Source of the DNA: an uncultured Verrucomicrobiota bacterium
GTDB taxonomy: Bacteria > Verrucomicrobiota > Verrucomicrobiia > Limisphaerales > UBA9464
NCBI GenBank assembly: GCA_964602595.1
Contig: CAZRRO010000017.1
Location: 67,528 to 131,527 of the forward strand
Direction of reading: 5' to 3'
DNA: 64,000 nt
The notes beneath the pieces were generated by a model. That model worked only from the letters and a program-made list of their open reading frames with translations, was not told the DNA's origin and made no database searches. Both the position numbers and the translations under genes were made by a program. Positions 30,024 to 39,005 of this stretch are shown piece after piece (the first letter of the stretch is position 1; each line of letters opens with the position of its first letter).

Positions 30024-30178
30024 CCCGCCTCATGGGTTGAGATTGTGAGCGGCCCACTGGGGCGCGTCAGGTTAAATTCCCGCGTCGTCGGCAAACGGCG
30101 GCCATGAATCGCCAATTGTGGCAGCGGCGGCCGGGCCCGGGGCATGGCAAAATTGCCGGCGCCGATCACGTTCCCGCC

Positions 30179-31015
30179 ATGTATCTTGCCCCGATCACGT
30201 CTGTCTTTCACCCGACTGATTTCAGCCGCAGCAACGAGGGGGCGTTCATCCACGCCCTGCGGATCGCCCTATTGGCACGGTGCGATCTCTCCCTGTTGCA
30301 CGTCGGCCGCCACGGCGAGGAGCACGGCTGGGAAGGCTTTCCCAGCGTCCGCGACCAACTGATTCGCTGGGAAGTCCTGCCGGCCGGGGCACCGCACAGT
30401 GCTGTGACCGACTTGGGCGTGCGGGTCACCAAGGGGCAGAAGGTGAACTCCGACCCGGTCGAGGCGATTGGCGAATACGTCGCGGAGCACCTGCCCGACC
30501 TGGTCGTGCTTTCAACCCATCAGCGGCAGGGACTTTCCCGCCTGCGTCGTCCCGCGGTGGCGGAACAGATCGCCCGCCTGGCCCGGGTGCGAACACTGTT
30601 CGTGCCCCGGGGCGTGACGGGATTCGTGGACCCCGTTTCGGGCGGGCTAACGCTGCGTCGCATCCTGATCCCCATCGACCATGACCCACGCCCGGCCGCC
30701 GCGGTTGGGGCGGCGGCAAGTTTGGCTCGGACCTTGGGACAGAAGCCGCTGGAATTTGTCTTCCTCCATGTCGGACCGGAAAAGGACTATCCCTCCGCCT
30801 ACCTGCCCGAACATCCCGGCTGGACCCGTGAAGTGGTCTGCGAGGAAGGCGACGTCGTAGAAACCATCCTGAACGTCAGCGACGAACGGGAAGTGGATCT
30901 CATCGTGATGGCCACCCGCGGGCACGACGGATTTGTCGACGCATTGCGCGGCAGCACGACCGAACGGGTCTTGCGCGGCGCGAAGTGCCCCCTGCTCGCG
31001 GTGCCGGCGCAGTGA
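30179..31015 (+). CDS. Universal stress protein (tandem Usp domains)
   Basis: ITSVFHPTDFS...DLVVLSTHQRQGLSR and ...DLIVMATRGHDGFVDALRGSTTERVLRGAKCPLLAVP are Usp hallmarks. Confidence 0.8.
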   Translation: MYLAPITSVFHPTDFSRSNEGAFIHALRIALLARCDLSLLHVGRHGEEHGWEGFPSVRDQLIRWEVLPAGAPHSAVTDLGVRVTKGQKVNSDPVEAIGEYVAEHLPDLVVLSTHQRQGLSRLRRPAVAEQIARLARVRTLFVPRGVTGFVDPVSGGLTLRRILIPIDHDPRPAAAVGAAASLARTLGQKPLEFVFLHVGPEKDYPSAYLPEHPGWTREVVCEEGDVVETILNVSDEREVDLIVMATRGHDGFVDALRGSTTERVLRGAKCPLLAVPAQ

Positions 31016-31017
31016 AT

Positions 31018-32388
31018 TCAGGCCGGCGGCAGGCGCACCAGGTGCACGGGCCGGTGGCTCCGTGCGACTACCGCTCCGGCGACCGAGCCGAACACCGCGC
31101 CCGCGAGGCCAGTCCGGCCGTGCGAGCTTAGGCAGATGGCGTGCGCGCCGAACTGCTCGGCCTGACGCAGGATGGCTTCGGCGACGTTGCCGGCCGACTC
31201 GACCACTGCCTCCACGGTCACTCCCCGTCGCAAGGCGGCCGCGGGGACCAGCGAGCCCAGCTTCTTCCGCGCGGATTGCAGCAGGCGGGCGTGCTCGCCG
31301 GGCGACAAGGTTGGCCGCCGGCCCGCCCCGAAGAAAGCCGCCACCGGTGACTGGCGTTCGGTGAGCGCGTGAAACAGGCGCAAGCGTCCGCCATTCGGCA
31401 GCAGTGAGCACGCGGCGGCGACCGCACGGTTGCCTTCGGCCGAGAAGTCCGTGGTGACCAGCACGCGGCTCAAAGCGGGCACGCCGGCGGGCGCGGCCGG
31501 ATGGCTGACCACCGGCACGCAAACAACCCCCATGGGCGCGTCGCAAAGCAGTGCCCGCGAGGTGGAACGATGCCACAGCCGTGAGAGTCCGTGGTGCTGG
31601 TGGGCGCCCACGACGATCAGGTCCGCATTCGCGGCCTTGGCCATTTCGATCAGGGCGGCCGCCGGATTGTCGCCCCCCGCCTCCACCAACACCTGCACCC
31701 GCTGTTCGCCGAGCACCGCGGCCACCTTCTCGATCAGGTCCCGCCGCAAGGCGGCGTCCACGGGGGCGGGATTGGCCGTTGCGGGAAACTCCTCCTCCGC
31801 GAGGCCGAGGCGATCGCTTTCGGCCGCGGGATCATCCACGTAGCCGGCGAACAGTTCGCAGGGACCGTGGGCGGCCAACTCGCCGGCAAAGGCGAGGGCG
31901 GTGTCGCTTGCGAGCGTGAAATCCGTCGCCACAAACACCCGCAGCGCGCGGCGTCCCTCCGCCCATTCCCGGAAAGGCATCGCGGATCGTGTCACCAACG
32001 TCGGCACCAAGGCCGATTCGGCGATGCGTTCCGCCGTGCTGCCGAGAAACACCCGCGCCAGCGCCACGCGACCGACCGACGAAACCACTACCAGCCGGGT
32101 TTGCCCGGGGCGGGCCAGCTTCTTTAAGACCCCCTCCGCCTCGCCGAGCTCGACCGTTCCGTGGACCTTCGGACCCGCGGACGGCAACGCGGCGACCTCC
32201 CGCTCCATCCGTTCCCGCAGCCGGGCGACGATGGGCTCCCACAACGGGTCCGGCAGGCCGTCCGCCAGGGGAGGCGTCGTCGCGTGGACCAAGTGGACAC
32301 GGTCGTTGAATCGTTTCGCCAGCGCGGTGGCGACGGCGATCGCGTCGGCGGAATTTGGACTGAAGTCGGTGCCGGCGAGGATTTTCAT
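31018..32388 (-). CDS. Universal stress protein (three Usp-like domains)
   Basis: MKILAGTDFSPNS..., RLVVVSSVGR...LGSTAERI, DLIVVGAHQHHGL and ICLSSHGRTGLAGAVFGSVAGAVV repeats. Confidence 0.8.
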   Translation of the reverse strand: MKILAGTDFSPNSADAIAVATALAKRFNDRVHLVHATTPPLADGLPDPLWEPIVARLRERMEREVAALPSAGPKVHGTVELGEAEGVLKKLARPGQTRLVVVSSVGRVALARVFLGSTAERIAESALVPTLVTRSAMPFREWAEGRRALRVFVATDFTLASDTALAFAGELAAHGPCELFAGYVDDPAAESDRLGLAEEEFPATANPAPVDAALRRDLIEKVAAVLGEQRVQVLVEAGGDNPAAALIEMAKAANADLIVVGAHQHHGLSRLWHRSTSRALLCDAPMGVVCVPVVSHPAAPAGVPALSRVLVTTDFSAEGNRAVAAACSLLPNGGRLRLFHALTERQSPVAAFFGAGRRPTLSPGEHARLLQSARKKLGSLVPAAALRRGVTVEAVVESAGNVAEAILRQAEQFGAHAICLSSHGRTGLAGAVFGSVAGAVVARSHRPVHLVRLPPA

Positions 32389-34230: not shown

Positions 34231-35007
34231 CTACCCGGCCGGGAGTGCCCGCGACTGCAAGCGCACCCGCACCAGCAAGTCGTTCAACGCCTGCCGGGTG
34301 GCCTCGTCCGGCGCTTCCGGCAACGTGCTGGCGTCGTGGGCAGCCTGCAGTTCACCGCGCAGCCGCTCGTATTCAGCCTCGTGGAAGGCGGTGTCGGCGT
34401 CGGTCAAGGTCGTGTTCTCACCTTTGGTCTTCCGCTCGATCAACTCGGCGATGTAGGGCAGGCGGAAGTCTTGGTTGAGCGTGACGAGGTTCGCCTCGAT
34501 CACGCCGGTCCGCATCAGATGGATACCAGTGAGCAGCACGCGATAAACGTAGAGCAGCGGCTTCACCCGGCGCGGCGACTCCTTTAGGAAGAGTTTCCAC
34601 TGCGTCTCCGCAAACCCGAAGTAGTGGTGGGAATGGTGCCGGGTTATTAGGCCCGTGCGGCACGCACCCTTCAGCTCCGCGTGTTCCGGCGAGGTCTGGA
34701 CGATCAAGGGCGAGAAAAGCTGCTCCAGCACGTAGCCGTTCTTCTTCAGGAGCAGGCCGAAGAACTTCCGGACGTCGTGCGAAACGATGTCCATCTCCAG
34801 CCCTTCGATCACCCGGCTGTCCTCCACCGTTTCGTCCTGAACCTCCAACCCGACGACCCGTTCCAGCGGCAGCACATGCGCCCCGCGCAGGTTGAAGTCC
34901 GAATCGGGAGAAGGAAACCCGTAGAGATGCGCCCCGCTGATGGTGGCGAAGAGCAGCGGATACGGCTGTGCCGCAACGATGCGGCTGAGAAGTGGGTCGA
35001 TTGTCAT
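34231..35007 (-). CDS. RlaP-type (PF10127-like) Pol-beta-superfamily nucleotidyltransferase
   Basis: LLFATISGAHLYGFPSPDSDFNLRGAHVLPLERVVGL...DVRKFFGLLLKKNGYVLEQLFSP matches the GS-x-YG...SD-x-D-x-RG signature I recall for this family. Confidence 0.78.
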   Translation of the reverse strand: MTIDPLLSRIVAAQPYPLLFATISGAHLYGFPSPDSDFNLRGAHVLPLERVVGLEVQDETVEDSRVIEGLEMDIVSHDVRKFFGLLLKKNGYVLEQLFSPLIVQTSPEHAELKGACRTGLITRHHSHHYFGFAETQWKLFLKESPRRVKPLLYVYRVLLTGIHLMRTGVIEANLVTLNQDFRLPYIAELIERKTKGENTTLTDADTAFHEAEYERLRGELQAAHDASTLPEAPDEATRQALNDLLVRVRLQSRALPAG

Positions 35008-35082
35008 GTGGCGGTCTTAAGGTCGGACTAGAGTTTCGTCACGATCCTTCGGAATGGTTGATCGCACCAGACGCACGCCCAG

Positions 35083-36453
35083 TTAGGAATCATGCACATT
35101 ATCGCTAGTCGTCCCGTTCGAATGAAGGACCACAGGCAACGGGGTGACACTGGCCAAGCGGTCGAAGAAGCCGCGGGCAGATGTGATCGGGGCCGGTTCA
35201 TACTCCGGACCGACAGTTTCGAGCAGTTGAGTCAGGGCCAGTTGGTGCTGCAAATCCTGGTCGGCGCCGAGGGGAATCCGTTCGATGAGCTGTGGCCACT
35301 GCGGGCGCGGCGGGACAGGGCGATAACCGGAGCACCACTTCAGGGACAGTCCTCGCTGAAAGACATCCAGGTGGCTGACCAGCAAACCGGACAGATCGCC
35401 GACTGCCTCGATCGCATACCGCAACAAGACAGCGTCCGGATGGCCCCGGCGGAACCACCCCTGCCAACCTCCGTCACGGTTGTGCGGTTCGGGAAGAAGT
35501 TCACTGAGTGATTCATCATGCGTCGGCAACGGCCCAGCTCCGTGGCGGGTGAGATACGTGCGCAGGACGCCGTAGTGTTCGATCGGAGCGAATATCCCGA
35601 ACCGTGCGGCCACCCTGTTCACGGCCGCGGAGCCGATGGAACTCCAGGTCGTATGCGGATGGAATCCGCGCCATTCATCGAGAAGCACGCCTTGAGCTCC
35701 CTCGAACAGGACACAGCCCTCCTGCCGCAACTGCCTGCGGACAATTTCGGGTGATCCCGGAGGGCATTGGCGGGCGAGAGCCCGAGTGCAAGCCAGCCAT
35801 CTCGCTGCCAGCGTCTCGTCCTGCAAGATCTGAAGTTCTCCGCTTGCGGCATCGCTGCCCCCGTTCGGGAATTGCGGCACGAACTCGGACAGCAGCGTCT
35901 CTCGGATGGCCTGCAAGCGATCGAGCTGTTGGCGTGCAGCCGAGGCGGTGGTTGTCAACAGATCAACGTAACGCAGATCCCGCCCCGGATGTTCGAGGCT
36001 GTGGCGGACCGTCTCACCCACGCCGACGCCGCAGGTCCCATGGGCGGCCAAGCCGCGCAGTAGTTCGCGCAACCGACCGGCGGCCTGATGAAACGGCGTG
36101 GTGACGCGGCATTGGCCGTCGATGGTCAGGCGCGCCAGCGCGTCCTGGACCCCGATCCGCGCGAGCGCCTCGGCCTCCATCAGCAGGGCGGTCGGATGCA
36201 CGATCATGGGATCGACCAGCAGGGTGCGCACCCTTGGCACCAAAGTGCCGGCCCCGAACTGCGAAAACGTGTGGTGCCGGGCCGAGCGACCGTTCTGGGC
36301 GGGTTCGTTTACGTTGTGGCCGGCCTGGGCGCCGCCGTTGAAGCGCACGACCGTGTGGGCCTGCCAACGCCGCGTCAGCGCATCGACAAAATGCCCTTTG
36401 CCGCAGTCGCCAAATCCCAACCCCAGCACGGAGGCGTAGCGCGTCGTGCTCAT
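35083..36453 (-). CDS. Divergent adenylosuccinate-synthetase-family (PurA-like) enzyme
   Basis: The PurA scaffold is recognisable but the motifs are altered: GDCGKGH (canonical GDEGKGK), GGAQAGHN (GGHNAGHT), GTCGVGVGET (GTTGRGIGPA), FEGAQGVLLD (conserved), YLTRHGAGPLPT (YSTRVGAGPFPT). Confidence 0.82.
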   Translation of the reverse strand: MSTTRYASVLGLGFGDCGKGHFVDALTRRWQAHTVVRFNGGAQAGHNVNEPAQNGRSARHHTFSQFGAGTLVPRVRTLLVDPMIVHPTALLMEAEALARIGVQDALARLTIDGQCRVTTPFHQAAGRLRELLRGLAAHGTCGVGVGETVRHSLEHPGRDLRYVDLLTTTASAARQQLDRLQAIRETLLSEFVPQFPNGGSDAASGELQILQDETLAARWLACTRALARQCPPGSPEIVRRQLRQEGCVLFEGAQGVLLDEWRGFHPHTTWSSIGSAAVNRVAARFGIFAPIEHYGVLRTYLTRHGAGPLPTHDESLSELLPEPHNRDGGWQGWFRRGHPDAVLLRYAIEAVGDLSGLLVSHLDVFQRGLSLKWCSGYRPVPPRPQWPQLIERIPLGADQDLQHQLALTQLLETVGPEYEPAPITSARGFFDRLASVTPLPVVLHSNGTTSDNVHDS

Positions 36454-36465
36454 GCGGCCGGGTGC

Positions 36466-37431
36466 TTACTCAAACAACCGCTTCCACCATTTGGCTGCGG
36501 ATGTTCCCGTGGAATACGACGACCGGGCATCCGGCAACTTTAGCAGCGCCGCATAATCCTGCAGCGCGCGGACGGTGGAACCGACGTGCTGGCGGTCAAA
36601 GGCGTTCGCCGAAAGGATGCGGCCCAAGGCGTCGAGGTCCGGAACGAGCTTCTCGGTCAACCCAACGATCGCGGCCGCGACGGCGCAGGTGTCCATCGGC
36701 GATTCCATGCAGATGGTGTGATTGCCCAGCAGCTGCCGCCAGCGCGCCTCGCATCCTTTGCGTCGGCCCAAATCCGGGATGAGAAAGAAGACGTGAAAGG
36801 TTTCCGCGGCCGTGGCGATGACCTCTTCCAAGGGAATGTCCTCGTCGAGCTTCTCGCCCACAAGAGCCTCGATGTGGTGCCGCGAGACCGACGGATAGGG
36901 CCGTTCGTCACCGGTCAGGAAAAGGTAGCCCTTCTGCTTCCGCTTCACCCAGTTGTCCATGTCGGTGTGCTGCGCGGCCATGTAGAACGCCAGATCGTAG
37001 CTTTCCTCGCCGGTTCCGCCGCCGCCGCCCTCGAGGTAACTCCACGTCAGCCATTGATCCATGAGCTCCGCCGTGCTCTCGAACTGGCCAACCTGCAGGG
37101 CGGCCTGGTCCGAATTCGCGTCTCCGATCGCCATGAACATCAGCTGCGGGTGGGCCACACCGCACGCCGTGAGCAGCTTCATGAAGTTCGGCAGTTCCTT
37201 CGTGGCCAGCAGATGCGGGATGTCGCCCATCGAGCCGGTGACATCCAGGGCGAAGGCGATGCCCAAGGAATCCGGATGGTCCGCGCTGTCCCGGCACTCC
37301 CGCACCTTGAGGCCCTTGGGATTCATCAGCGGATGGCACTGCCGCTGGGCGAAGATCTCCGAGCCGCCCTTGTGGGCGCGACCGGCGGTGAGCGCGGCAT
37401 GGGCCGCATGGGAGTAGTTTCCGTAACCCAT
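36466..37431 (-). CDS. vWA-domain protein with MIDAS motif
   Basis: FALDVTGSMGDIP (DxTxS MIDAS), AIGDANSD and LFLTGDERP are downstream vWA elements. Its stop is 12 nt from the start of the PurA-like gene. Confidence 0.8.
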   Translation of the reverse strand: MGYGNYSHAAHAALTAGRAHKGGSEIFAQRQCHPLMNPKGLKVRECRDSADHPDSLGIAFALDVTGSMGDIPHLLATKELPNFMKLLTACGVAHPQLMFMAIGDANSDQAALQVGQFESTAELMDQWLTWSYLEGGGGGTGEESYDLAFYMAAQHTDMDNWVKRKQKGYLFLTGDERPYPSVSRHHIEALVGEKLDEDIPLEEVIATAAETFHVFFLIPDLGRRKGCEARWRQLLGNHTICMESPMDTCAVAAAIVGLTEKLVPDLDALGRILSANAFDRQHVGSTVRALQDYAALLKLPDARSSYSTGTSAAKWWKRLFE

Positions 37432-37468
37432 AAATTTGGTTTTGGTTCAGTGCTTCAAAACTGCCGAG

Positions 37469-38410
37469 TCAGACATTCAAGGGAACAAACGCAGGCGGCC
37501 CGAACGCCGCCTTCGCTTCGGCCCGCAGCAGGGCATCCAACCCTTCCGCGCATTGGGTGCGGCAAAAGTCCTCGTCGGTCGCCGCCTGGGTGATCAGTCG
37601 GGCCAGGCCAGCCGGCACTTGGGCCGGCAGCGCGCCCCAACCGCCGGCTCCGCACAACAAAACCTGAACCACGCGAGCGCTCCGGCAAAGGTCCGCGCCC
37701 CGGCCGGCTTCTCCGGCGCCCTTCCTCGCGTCAGACCAGCCGATGAGCCGAACGCCATGATCGGCTGGGTGAACCAGGGCATGCTCAGGCCGGATGTCGC
37801 CGTGGCACCAACCCTGACGATGGACGAAATTCAACACCTCCAGCATCCGCCTCCAGATCCAAACCCCGTGGCGTGGATCAAGACCGGAGGCCGCGCGTTC
37901 GTTCAGCGCCGCGAGGCTGCCCCAGAATCCGCTGGGATGCCGCAGCACCAGACACTGCCGCCCGGGACTTCCTTCCACCGCGCCCTGCGCCATCACTTCC
38001 GGCAGAAGCTTCGAGAAGTAGGCACCGGCGCCATCGGCGTCCAACCGTTGCAAATCCCGCGACACTTCCGCCTCGCGCGCATAGAGCGATGCCGCCTCGG
38101 ACCTCGAGGAAAGTTTGACCGTGGCCAGCAGGGGCAATGGCCCCACGCGACGCGCGAGGTAGACCTCCGAGACGTCCCCCGCGCCCAGGCGCTGGATCAA
38201 CTGGAACGCACCGCCGCCGCAGACCACCGAGTCCAGGCCGGCCGAATCGCGGCGCGCCCGAACCAAGGCCTGCCGAAACGAATCGCGCTTCACCAAGTCT
38301 TCCGTCTTGTTTATGAGCGAACCGCAGGAACCGCATTTGACGGCCCGCCAAAGGGCCACCCGCGGCAGAGGCGCGCCACACTGAGGACAGCTCACGGCGA
38401 CCCACGCCAT
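37469..38410 (-). CDS. Zn-ribbon fused atypical protein kinase-like protein
   Basis: N-terminal CPQC...CGSC ribbon, glycine loop LGAGDVSEVY, Lys in ATVKL, catalytic-loop-like HGDIRPEH, and IGWSDA in the DFG position. ATG 38410 is preferred (the track uses GTG 38416). Confidence 0.72.
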   Translation of the reverse strand: MAWVAVSCPQCGAPLPRVALWRAVKCGSCGSLINKTEDLVKRDSFRQALVRARRDSAGLDSVVCGGGAFQLIQRLGAGDVSEVYLARRVGPLPLLATVKLSSRSEAASLYAREAEVSRDLQRLDADGAGAYFSKLLPEVMAQGAVEGSPGRQCLVLRHPSGFWGSLAALNERAASGLDPRHGVWIWRRMLEVLNFVHRQGWCHGDIRPEHALVHPADHGVRLIGWSDARKGAGEAGRGADLCRSARVVQVLLCGAGGWGALPAQVPAGLARLITQAATDEDFCRTQCAEGLDALLRAEAKAAFGPPAFVPLNV

Positions 38411-38831
38411 TACCACCGCCCTCCAGCGGACAAGTGAACTTCGACGTAAGGCGACGTCATGGGCTGATTCATTTTGAGCGGCTGAGGCTCACGATGGCCG
38501 ACGGCCGCCCGGACGCGCAACTCCGTTCGCTGCCGGGCACTCGGTCGGGCTGGGGTTGGCGCCACCGTGCCGGAAAATGGAGAGATTTATTTCCATCAGC
38601 GATCAACCGCGGCACATCATGCCGGAATCAACATCCCATTTGCCTCCTTGTTGCCGGGGCGTTCGTGGAGTCGGCTTTCGACCAGGGCGCGGCGAATCCT
38701 CAAGGGATGTTCCGGCGCTCGGGGCAACTGGGTGCATTCGCGTTCTCGACGACTGAATGGAAAGGATGGCGGGTTGATCATTGGCACGTTTACGGCGCCC
38801 ACGGTCGTCCACGCCCATCGGTCCAGGCGGC

Positions 38832-38990
38832 TCAGACGATCCGGCCGTCGGCGAGTTCGATGACTCGGGCGGCGCCCCGGGGTCCGTGGGTGCAGTCACT
38901 CAGGGTTGTCCCGCGCTCGGCACGCAGGTTAAGCAGCACCGAGCCGCAACTCCAACGAGGTCGACGGCGGTTCGACCGCCGTCCCTCCGA
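38832..38990 (-). pseudogene. Frameshifted, 5'-truncated remnant of an ABC-transporter ATPase (LolD/MacB-like C-terminus)
   Basis: Minus-strand translation gives ...VLLNLRAERGTTLSDCTHGPRGAARVIELADGRIV*, which resembles the canonical ...L.ElnrerGtTlvlVTHD...A....rvi.l.DGriv. The upstream part is in another frame (EPPSTSLE...). Confidence 0.45.
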
Positions 38991-39005
38991 CCATTGTGGC
39001 CTGAT

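Follow-up and report, generated by a model that had tools for sequence, protein, structure and literature searches.

What does an operon do in which a paralogue of adenylosuccinate synthetase (PurA) is encoded next to a von Willebrand factor A (vWA)-like protein, a protein with a protein kinase fold and a nucleotidyltransferase of the RlaP family? The question is raised by a locus in a 64,000-nucleotide (nt) stretch of DNA from an uncultured Verrucomicrobiota bacterium (contig CAZRRO010000017.1, positions 67,528 to 131,527; hereinafter the window), where four co-directional genes lie on the minus strand. The gaps of only 37, 12 and 75 nt between these genes, which are evident from the list of open reading frames (ORFs), are the same as in the preliminary description of this DNA that was made from the sequence alone. 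The combination of genes is new at the system level, and every part of it belongs to a known superfamily. The comparisons reported here support the conclusion that the kinase-like, vWA-like and PurA-like genes comprise one conserved functional unit which is horizontally mobile. Searches of the literature aimed at this module found no published description of it, only mentions at the level of annotation.

A three-gene module shared by diverse bacteria

A pattern scan that was based on a PurA-like alignment and took one genome per species identified at least 548 loci; the best 80 of these loci were compared, and 78 of them have enough upstream flank for the order of the trio to be assessed (individual loci are denoted below by numbers with the prefix L). 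The order kinase-like/vWA-like/PurA-like is kept in 75 of the 78 informative loci. The 80 loci span at least seven phyla and come from Verrucomicrobiota, Beta-, Gamma- and former Deltaproteobacteria/Myxococcota, Acidobacteriota, Chloroflexota, Actinomycetota, Planctomycetota, Fibrobacteria and bacteria of the candidate phyla radiation (CPR), and plasmid-borne copies are found in Rhodococcus, Agrobacterium vitis and Variovorax. Given that, outside the trio, the most widely shared gene family is present in 17 loci, all from one genus, the trio moves as a cassette of its own. The best conserved member of the module is the vWA-like protein, with approximately 70% identity between Verrucomicrobia and Variovorax, compared to 55% for the PurA-like protein and 45% for the kinase-like protein. 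No fusion of the vWA-like and PurA-like genes of the 'Rosetta stone' type was seen; the long homologues are an intein carrier, proteins with an N-terminal insertion or N-terminal extensions, and one with a likely frameshift tail.

The unit of four genes that had been proposed initially is thus reduced to its first three members, which recur together across phyla as well as in phages when their co-occurrence in other genomes is checked; the RlaP gene does not belong to it, given that no more than 3 of 83 related loci have this gene in the vicinity. One of the related loci, L001 (CAYWCK010000122.1), is labelled as uncultured Bifidobacteriaceae; given that its trio is 67-87% identical to the sequences from the window and from Verrucomicrobia, this contig is probably mis-binned.

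The module in large phages

Approximately 217 sequenced phages carry the vWA-like/PurA-like pair. A tblastn search with the vWA-like protein matched 219 phage records (200 Mycobacterium, 10 Rhizobium, 6 Vibrio and three others), and the PurA-like protein matched nearly the same genomes (201 Mycobacterium, 10 Rhizobium and 6 Vibrio). Genes 262, 263 and 265 of cluster C1 mycobacteriophages, for example Nidhogg, are homologous to all three window proteins (E = 3e-16, 5e-41 and 1e-62, respectively) and are annotated as 'serine/threonine kinase', hypothetical and 'PurA-like adenylosuccinate synthetase', the last name being also used in the C1 mycobacteriophage genome announcements (PMC9476963). The presence of the full trio in these phages, which are supported by the host M. 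smegmatis, makes the module experimentally tractable. Only the core pair, vWA-like plus PurA-like, is encoded in the phages of Vibrio (~195 kb) and Rhizobium (~207 kb); gp016 of the Rhizobium phage was tested as a candidate homologue of the kinase-like protein and is not one. All three window proteins match PHROG families, and the family of the vWA-like protein, phrog_2971, has no function assigned there.

A scan of IMG/VR identified 474 viral contigs with the vWA-like gene, many of them 100-675 kb in size, of which 80 loci were examined. The PurA-like gene directly follows the vWA-like gene in 73 of the 80 loci. The kinase-like gene is present in 29 loci, and in 41 others a helical protein of about 120 amino acids (aa) is encoded instead, directly upstream of the vWA-like gene (viral loci L099-L175, for example L113, 5630-6001); the two never occur together. 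The small helical protein is characterized by the motif GAF..SLKRNNKQIR.DRA...ENMLDLSP...LFGG, has no match in Pfam, and did not turn up in a search of the bacterial loci and cultured phages. The abundance of the module in large lytic phages makes a simple interpretation as a 'defence system' less likely.

Two other features of the viral loci were noted. A homing endonuclease gene of the GIY-YIG/NUMOD type is located between the vWA-like and PurA-like genes in L161 (3522-4352) and in eight other loci. In L108 (1805-3259) and in five other loci, a gene located a few kb upstream of the module encodes a protein of the Ro60/TROVE family, which is involved in RNA quality control; this protein contains a vWA domain of its own, and the contigs are T4-like and also encode gp32 and UvsX/RecA homologues.

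The PurA-like enzyme retains the catalytic core of PurA without its aspartate pocket

The PurA-like gene (35083..36453, minus strand) encodes a protein of 456 aa, a paralogue of a GTP-dependent ligase, and constitutes one half of the invariant core of the module. The protein matches the Pfam family PF00709 (Adenylsucc_synt) with an E-value of 6e-53, and its best match in the PDB is Yersinia adenylosuccinate synthetase (3hid, E = 6e-32). Its scores are below the cut-offs of both NCBIfam purA equivalog models (140.8 vs 402 bits for NF002223 and 115.2 vs 395.6 bits for TIGR00184), and the PurZ model NF038379 aligns with residues 9-118 only, at 26.3 bits against a cut-off of 300. The gap between 141 and 402 bits, together with the presence of the family on plasmids and in phages, supports the conclusion that this protein is not the housekeeping PurA.

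The roles of individual residues in E. coli PurA are known from established structural work on that enzyme, and 41 diverse bacterial and 67 viral members of the PurA-like family (~110 sequences) were mapped onto these residues. The P-loop and the counterparts of Asp13, Lys16, His41, Gln224 and Asp333 of E. coli PurA are retained without exception in the 41 bacterial sequences, and 65-67 of the 67 viral ones have them as well. In the window, the P-loop reads GDCGKG (36394..36411, minus strand; GDEGKG in E. coli) and carries the catalytic Asp16 and Lys19; its G, D, G, K and G are present in 41 of 41 bacterial and 65 of 67 viral sequences, with the remaining two gapped in this region. The residues of the L-aspartate pocket are replaced throughout the ~110 sequences, with T300 changed to W, Y or F, T301 to Q, R131 to V, L, I or M, and R304 to F, and with R303 being variable. 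The window protein has W330-Q331 (35461..35466, minus strand) in place of the aspartate-binding Thr300-Thr301; both W and Q are found in all 41 bacterial members, and among the 67 viral members, Q is present in all and an aromatic residue in 54. Further changes across the family are N38 to Q, V273 to H, T129 to C and K331 to H or C.

This pattern of residues shows that the predicted GTP-dependent machinery of phosphoryl transfer, including the Gln by which the purine 6-oxo group is held, is kept in the PurA-like enzyme and that the L-aspartate pocket is lost. The initial observation that the PurA fold is retained and the substrate motifs are not was therefore accurate as regards the aspartate-binding motifs, the fold and catalytic residues being kept. 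From these features, we infer that the enzyme joins an activated purine to another amine. A table of covariation between the N-terminal motif of the vWA-like protein and the pocket residues of the PurA-like protein could not be separated from phylogeny, and no conclusion was drawn from it.

The proteins of this family are routinely annotated as ordinary or PurZ-type adenylosuccinate synthetases, and the analysis of residues indicates that this is a mis-annotation. In L087-L089 and in many RefSeq phage records, the label given by RefSeq and PHROGs is '2-aminooxy adenylosuccinate synthetase', a PurZ-type name. Given that the phage members lack the aspartate-binding residues, this label is probably wrong.

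The vWA-like protein

The other half of the invariant core, the vWA-like gene (36466..37431, minus strand), encodes a protein of 321 aa that belongs to a family of 1,765 clusters at 50% identity and has no match in Pfam. Three motifs, DVTGSMG, GGGG(T/x)..ES and TGDE, which correspond to the three elements of a metal ion-dependent adhesion site (MIDAS), are invariant or nearly so across very diverse members. In the window, the first of these, D63-V-T65-G-S67, is located at 37231..37245 (minus strand); all of the 60 diverse representatives compared share D63 and S67, and at least 90% of them share T65 and G66. Profile comparison with hhalign aligned the family with E. coli YfbK (probability 47%, E = 1.9e-4) and YeaH (probability 40%, E = 3e-4), in register on the DxSGSM (MIDAS) strand only. 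A few relatives produce marginal matches to VWA, VWA_2, VWA_CoxE and DUF444 (E = 0.013-0.1), and three homologues are named 'VWA domain-containing protein' at NCBI. Taken together, it is likely but unconfirmed that this is a vWA-like protein with a MIDAS-type site. The vWA protein with an intact MIDAS of the preliminary description accordingly stands with regard to DVTGS and the other MIDAS motifs and does not extend to a significant Pfam vWA match.

Another distinctive feature of the family is the N-terminus, MGYGNYS in the window (37411..37431, minus strand; no earlier in-frame start is present there), which follows the invariant pattern Met-Gly, then x-G-x-aromatic-S/D. The 'MG' start is found in every complete bacterial member and in all three types of cultured phages; of the 80 viral ORFs, 65 begin directly with MG, and in 14 others the MG motif is located within an extension that results from taking the longest ORF.

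One homologue of the window protein, P0446, contains a Hint/intein-like insert of ~270 aa (residues ~178-449) that starts with a Cys, ends with ...SSN|C and splits KGY|FIIGDE, the strand-4 MIDAS motif. Inteins typically occupy functionally critical sites, so that an intein inserted exactly at this point suggests that the KGY..GDE motif is functionally important. In CPR bacteria (L066, 5474-6916, and L077, 5426-6868), the vWA-like protein is 480 aa long and contains an additional conserved C-terminal region of ~170 aa with no strong Pfam match.

The third component is probably not a conventional kinase

The kinase-like gene (37469..38410, minus strand) encodes a protein of 313 aa with a kinase fold and a Zn ribbon. 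Its longest ORF, 37469-38416, starts with GTG and encodes 315 aa; given that a GGAGG sequence is located 9 nt before the ATG at 38410 and that the catalogued protein has 313 aa, the ATG is the likelier start. The protein has sub-threshold Pfam matches to Pkinase (E = 2.5e-4), APH and Kdo, along with traces of a Zn ribbon. The AlphaFold2 model, with a mean predicted local distance difference test score (pLDDT) of 80, has a protein kinase fold, and its top Foldseek match is PknB (1o6y, E = 7e-10). The ribbon, CPQC (C8, C11)...CGSC (C26, C29), is encoded at 38324..38389 (minus strand), and its four Cys are present in 66-67 of the 75 family members analyzed. In Actinobacteria, Chloroflexi, one gammaproteobacterial metagenome-assembled genome, Agrobacterium and mycobacteriophages, the ribbon is replaced by a J-domain-like N-terminus with an HPD motif, for which the Pfam DnaJ matches are sub-threshold (E = 1e-3 to 6e-3).

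The residues K99, E113, H197, H203, H218, W225 and D240 (in the numbering of the 313-aa protein) are kept across the family: the beta3 Lys and alphaC Glu are conserved, and four His, one Trp and one Asp are found in 74-75 of the 75 members. The catalytic residues are not: 36 members have the HRD-type Asp and 7 have the DFG-type Asp, with a single member possessing both and 33 lacking both. At the DFG position, 67 of the 75 members have Gly (G224 in the window); the window protein contains HGD (D205) and has LIGW instead of DFG, and in the plasmid homologues both catalytic Asp are absent. Considering the degenerate catalytic residues and the unrelated small helical protein that occupies the same slot in many phages, the third component is probably an adaptor or regulator rather than a conventional kinase. 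All motifs originally reported for the operon are indeed present (CxxC...CxxC, LGAGDVSEVY, TVKLS and HGDIRPEH in this protein, and DVTGS in the vWA-like protein). Of the 'Zn-ribbon kinase' of the preliminary description, the ribbon and the kinase fold remain, the kinase core lacks the DFG aspartate, with LIGW replacing DFG, and the proposed role as a 'kinase switch' is doubtful, given that both catalytic Asp are found in only 1 of 75 members.

A tentative functional interpretation

The explanation that we favour, with a confidence that remains somewhat short of even, is that the module is a regulated enzyme which consists of a neofunctionalised PurA paralogue, an obligatory vWA-like partner with a MIDAS, and an interchangeable non-catalytic third subunit, joins a GTP-activated IMP-like (inosine monophosphate-like) nucleotide to an amine other than that of aspartate, is horizontally shared by bacteria and large phages, and acts on nucleotide pools during infection or stress. 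Under this scenario, the PurA-like enzyme would transfer phosphate from GTP to the lactam oxygen of a 6-oxopurine nucleotide, and the activated purine would then be passed to the non-aspartate amine. The vWA-like partner would be needed for the ligase step as an activator, a scaffold or the acceptor itself. The third protein would dock to the pair or regulate it via its Zn ribbon or J-domain-like N-terminus, without phosphorylating anything, and the module as a whole could adjust or mark nucleotide pools tied to the turnover of NAD and ADP-ribose.

Several observations weigh against this interpretation. In L053, L057 and L071, the PurA-like gene is found without its partners nearby. The chemistry ascribed to the PurA-like enzyme is an extrapolation from E. 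coli adenylosuccinate synthetase, and because the contacts with the phosphate of IMP are altered as well (N38 to Q, T129 to C, and R143 not conserved), the enzyme may act on a nucleotide other than IMP. The HRD-type Asp is retained in about half of the kinase-fold proteins, that of the window among them, such that some members may possess residual or unusual kinase activity. Two profiles of the vWA-like family found no vWA structure among PDB sequences, and the AlphaFold2 model of this protein, built from a shallow alignment, is poor (pLDDT 48), with Foldseek returning only noise for it (best E = 0.13). The physical interaction of the module proteins is suggested by synteny alone. Finally, the association with NrtR and Nudix genes, which is described below, is confined to approximately 14% of the bacterial loci and does not extend to the window.

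A more specific version of the scheme concerns the acceptor. In the PurA reaction, C6 of IMP is linked to the alpha-amine of aspartate. An analogous acceptor for the PurA-like enzyme could be the alpha-amine of the invariant N-terminal Gly of the vWA-like protein, exposed after the removal of Met, which would yield an N6-(protein)-AMP conjugate; we regard this 'N-terminal purinylation' as a long shot. If it does occur, it would be a previously unknown protein-nucleotide modification that might serve as a switch, a tag or a primer. More generally, solving the chemistry of the module could reveal a new nucleotide metabolite or protein-nucleotide conjugate, and also a new layer of phage-host conflict over nucleotides, possibly tied to NAD/ADP-ribose signalling.

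Genomic context and alternative explanations

In seven annotated contexts, the neighbours of the bacterial module are metabolic genes, and no defence islands were found, which answers in the negative the question of whether the operon falls in such islands. A recurrent theme is represented by genes of the NrtR type, which adjoin the module in nine loci (L011, L013, L014, L020, L030, L066, L068, L080 and L094). In L011, L066, L080 and L094, these genes were recognized by Pfam as NUDIX plus NrtR_WHD, and the rest are jackhmmer homologues. The NrtR-flanked modules come from Oxalobacteraceae, three actinobacterial genera, an Agrobacterium plasmid and a Saccharibacteria genome. NrtR leaves its operator DNA on binding ADP-ribose, a product of NAD cleavage (PMC2330246). 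Furthermore, a NUDIX gene starts 8 nt after the PurA-like gene on a Rhodococcus plasmid (L093), and a NadM-Nudix fusion precedes the module in two Rhodocyclales genomes (L024 and L042). Near the phage pair, there are genes for NADAR and an anaerobic ribonucleotide reductase (Vibrio phage) and for a ComF-like phosphoribosyltransferase and a protein annotated as Nudix/NMNAT (Rhizobium phage), and a NUDIX gene is located near the module in five viral contigs. The abundance in lytic phages and the recurrent NrtR, Nudix, NadM-Nudix and NADAR neighbours suggest that the module adjusts or marks nucleotide pools linked to the turnover of NAD and ADP-ribose during infection or stress, and we consider NAD/ADP-ribose-linked nucleotide metabolism as the theme of the module to be a lead. 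In L011 (3941-5032; Massilia) and also in L020, the NrtR-like and kinase-like genes are separated by a gene for an SPFH/Band-7 family protein that possesses a SHOCT tail.

The same neighbours are compatible with an alternative that overlaps the interpretation given above, namely phage-type repair of nucleotide pools or counter-defence. The PurA-like protein would directly re-aminate IMP or a similar adenine nucleotide that has been deaminated or cleaved, for example with ammonia, and so restore the AMP/ATP or NAD-related pools once these are depleted by host defences or stress, with the vWA-like and third proteins in regulatory roles and with the bacterial copies acting likewise under stress. 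Beyond the abundance of the module in large lytic phages, the nucleotide and NAD genes next to its phage copies, and the NrtR or NadM-Nudix genes that adjoin its bacterial ones, this possibility gains from the closed and more hydrophobic aspartate pocket, which could admit a small nucleophile. However, it offers no reason for the obligatory presence of a MIDAS-containing vWA-like protein whose N-terminus is invariant; the module includes neither an amidotransferase nor an ammonia-channel partner, the bacterial copies lie outside prophages in the seven contexts, and no experiment connects the module to any defence system. We consider pool repair unlikely, albeit worth keeping in mind.

A second alternative is anti-phage defence akin to the TerY-P triad, which consists of a TerY vWA protein, a PP2C phosphatase and a Ser/Thr kinase with a C-terminal Zn ribbon/OB fold, and which is a validated defence module that is proposed to function as a switch for variable effectors (PMC11090510). 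The kinase/vWA pair would then sense infection and switch on the PurA-like effector, which would drain GTP or IMP or make a toxic or signalling nucleotide. The likeness lies in a vWA-type gene beside a gene for a kinase-fold protein with a Zn ribbon; the patchy spread of the module over at least 548 species from many phyla and over plasmids fits horizontal transfer, and the kinase-like protein has PADLOC matches, which are weak and limited to PD-T4-6 (best E = 9e-8), PglW, MkoA and mad6. The differences are more extensive: neither the window operon nor the conserved neighbours in the 80 loci include a PP2C phosphatase gene, the ribbon is N-terminal (residues 8-29) rather than C-terminal, the kinase residues are degenerate, the catalytic Asp included, the PurA-like partner is fixed, and the kinase is dispensable in many phages. 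None of the TerY models of PADLOC produced a match, and the vWA-like, PurA-like and RlaP proteins have no PADLOC match at all. Furthermore, the module is surrounded by metabolic genes in the seven contexts, with none for defence or mobile elements; hundreds of lytic phages encode the core pair, frequently in the absence of any kinase; and with 70% identity across phyla, the vWA-like protein shows unusual conservation for an immune sensor. The TerY-P analogy that had been drawn for this operon thus fails on the phosphatase, on the position of the ribbon and on the models, and a defence function of this type appears improbable. The absence of a TerY match and the outcome of the literature searches agree with the earlier statement that no described system is known to couple these genes.

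The possibility that the PurA-like gene is an ordinary second purA or a phage auxiliary metabolic gene which boosts AMP synthesis, with neighbours that are unrelated to it, appears very improbable. Apart from the strong Adenylsucc_synt match, the retention of all catalytic residues and the database annotation as adenylosuccinate synthetase, it draws on the proximity of purU in the window, a feature that had been remarked upon from the outset; this adjacency is not conserved and is seen in no other related locus. The replacement of T300, T301, R131 and R303 in all ~110 sequences, scores far under the NCBIfam equivalog cut-offs, the near-obligate linkage to the vWA-like gene, and copies on plasmids and in phages whose hosts possess their own purA all speak against it.

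The remaining alternative involves the fourth gene of the operon, 34231..35007 (minus strand), which encodes a protein of 258 aa and is located 75 nt downstream of the PurA-like gene, with no terminator-like site between the two in the window. The assignment of its product to the RlaP-type nucleotidyltransferases with a Pol-beta fold holds, the match to PF10127 having an E-value of 4e-54 and covering the full length (184.4 bits against a gathering score of 23). RlaP enzymes append one or two nucleoside monophosphates to RNA 3' ends (bioRxiv 10.64898/2025.12.29.696909). The three related loci that contain RlaP genes differ in the position of these genes: a pair of RlaP genes is located downstream of the PurA-like gene in L001, and in L081 and L082, the RlaP gene precedes the kinase-like gene, and another RlaP paralogue is located farther in the same direction. 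Given this rarity and the varied positions, the RlaP gene of the window is, as judged from the compared loci, a lineage-specific neighbour found in a few Verrucomicrobia relatives and outside the conserved module, a local add-on that is possibly co-transcribed with the trio.

Genes related to RNA ends do occur near the module, inconsistently, as exemplified by RlaP in the window, a polynucleotide kinase/phosphatase in mycobacteriophages, an exoribonuclease in a Vibrio phage and viral Ro60. An operon for RNA repair or RNA-end modification, in which RlaP would extend damaged RNA 3' ends with a nucleotide made or presented by the trio, seems far-fetched: it can invoke the adjacent and probably co-transcribed RlaP gene of the window, the presence of RlaP next to the trio in three related loci with two other arrangements, the mycobacteriophage gene annotated as polynucleotide kinase with a PNKP-type HAD phosphatase domain, the Rv2179c-like exoribonuclease after the pair in the Vibrio phage and Ro60/TROVE in six viral loci, but RlaP is absent from 80 of the 83 related bacterial loci, none was noted beside the module in the phage loci examined, and the other RNA-related neighbours vary by lineage.

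In L081 (391-7833) and L082 (1398-7833), which are Verrucomicrobia metagenome contigs, the two RlaP paralogues flank other genes upstream of the trio. The genes between them include one for a 1,678-aa DUF5724/DUF4132/DUF7737 protein in L081 and three for proteins without known domains in L082. These paired paralogues may represent a separate RlaP-centred system.

Surroundings of the operon in the window

The operon is preceded by an intergenic region of 595 nt (38411..39005, minus strand) that contains no module ORF and is presumed to be its promoter or regulatory region. A scan of this region found no sigma-70-like promoter, the operon region including these 595 nt has no Rfam match, and a terminator scan from 33.5 to 39.5 kb returned nothing informative; only short repeats of doubtful meaning, which could be due to chance, were detected upstream. 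The GC content is even over the operon region. The neighbouring genes encode two universal stress proteins (Usp), a multihaem cytochrome, a SIS-domain protein, PurU, a PQQ beta-propeller protein, a metallo-beta-lactamase-fold (MBL) hydrolase and a MetE-like protein. With no mobile-element or defence genes among these ordinary neighbours, a prophage or defence-island setting was rejected for the window. A tblastn search of the window found neither a canonical purA nor a second RlaP paralogue. The two Usp genes (30104-32388) are divergent and located about 2 kb from the operon, beyond the genes for the SIS-domain protein and PurU; one of them encodes two Usp domains and the other three.

Relationship to known systems

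The closest known relative of the catalytic component is PurA itself (E. coli, PDB 1ade; Yersinia, 3hid), which has the same fold, approximately 28-30% identity and the same P-loop Asp and Lys, His41, Gln224 and Asp333. Because the catalytic and GTP-binding residues are identical, GTP-driven activation of the purine 6-oxo group is likely to be retained. Unlike PurA, the PurA-like family lacks the L-aspartate pocket, reaches only about one third of the equivalog cut-off and is paired with a vWA-like gene.

PurZ, a phage paralogue of PurA that makes the precursor of 2-aminoadenine (Z), still condenses its nucleotide with L-aspartate, and it illustrates how a minor alteration of a PurA paralogue can give rise to a new DNA base pathway. 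PurZ and the PurA-like family are similar in that both are phage-carried PurA paralogues with altered substrate use. They differ in that the PurA-like family lacks the Asp-binding residues, whereas PurZ lacks a vWA partner; compared to PurZ, the PurA-like family appears to have changed the other substrate site and to have gained an obligatory protein partner. The DatZ, MazZ and DpoZ partners were not seen beside the module.

For the vWA-like component, one point of comparison is the ArnA-ArnB pair of Sulfolobus (FHA and vWA proteins that interact in a phosphorylation-dependent manner), where the vWA protein functions in complex with a regulatory partner linked to phosphorylation signalling (PMC6509490). 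This is an archaeal regulator of motility that includes no enzyme partner and has no sequence relationship to the module. The arrangement of the module, in which a nucleotide-dependent protein is encoded beside a MIDAS-containing vWA adaptor or activator, is reminiscent of the MoxR AAA+/vWA pairs, such as CbbQ-CbbO and NorQ-NorD, and of YeaG-YeaH, a PrkA kinase with a DUF444 vWA protein; DUF444 and YeaH are also the best, albeit weak, profile matches of the vWA-like protein. The partner in the module described here is a SIMIBI-class GTP-dependent ligase rather than an AAA+ ATPase or a PrkA kinase.

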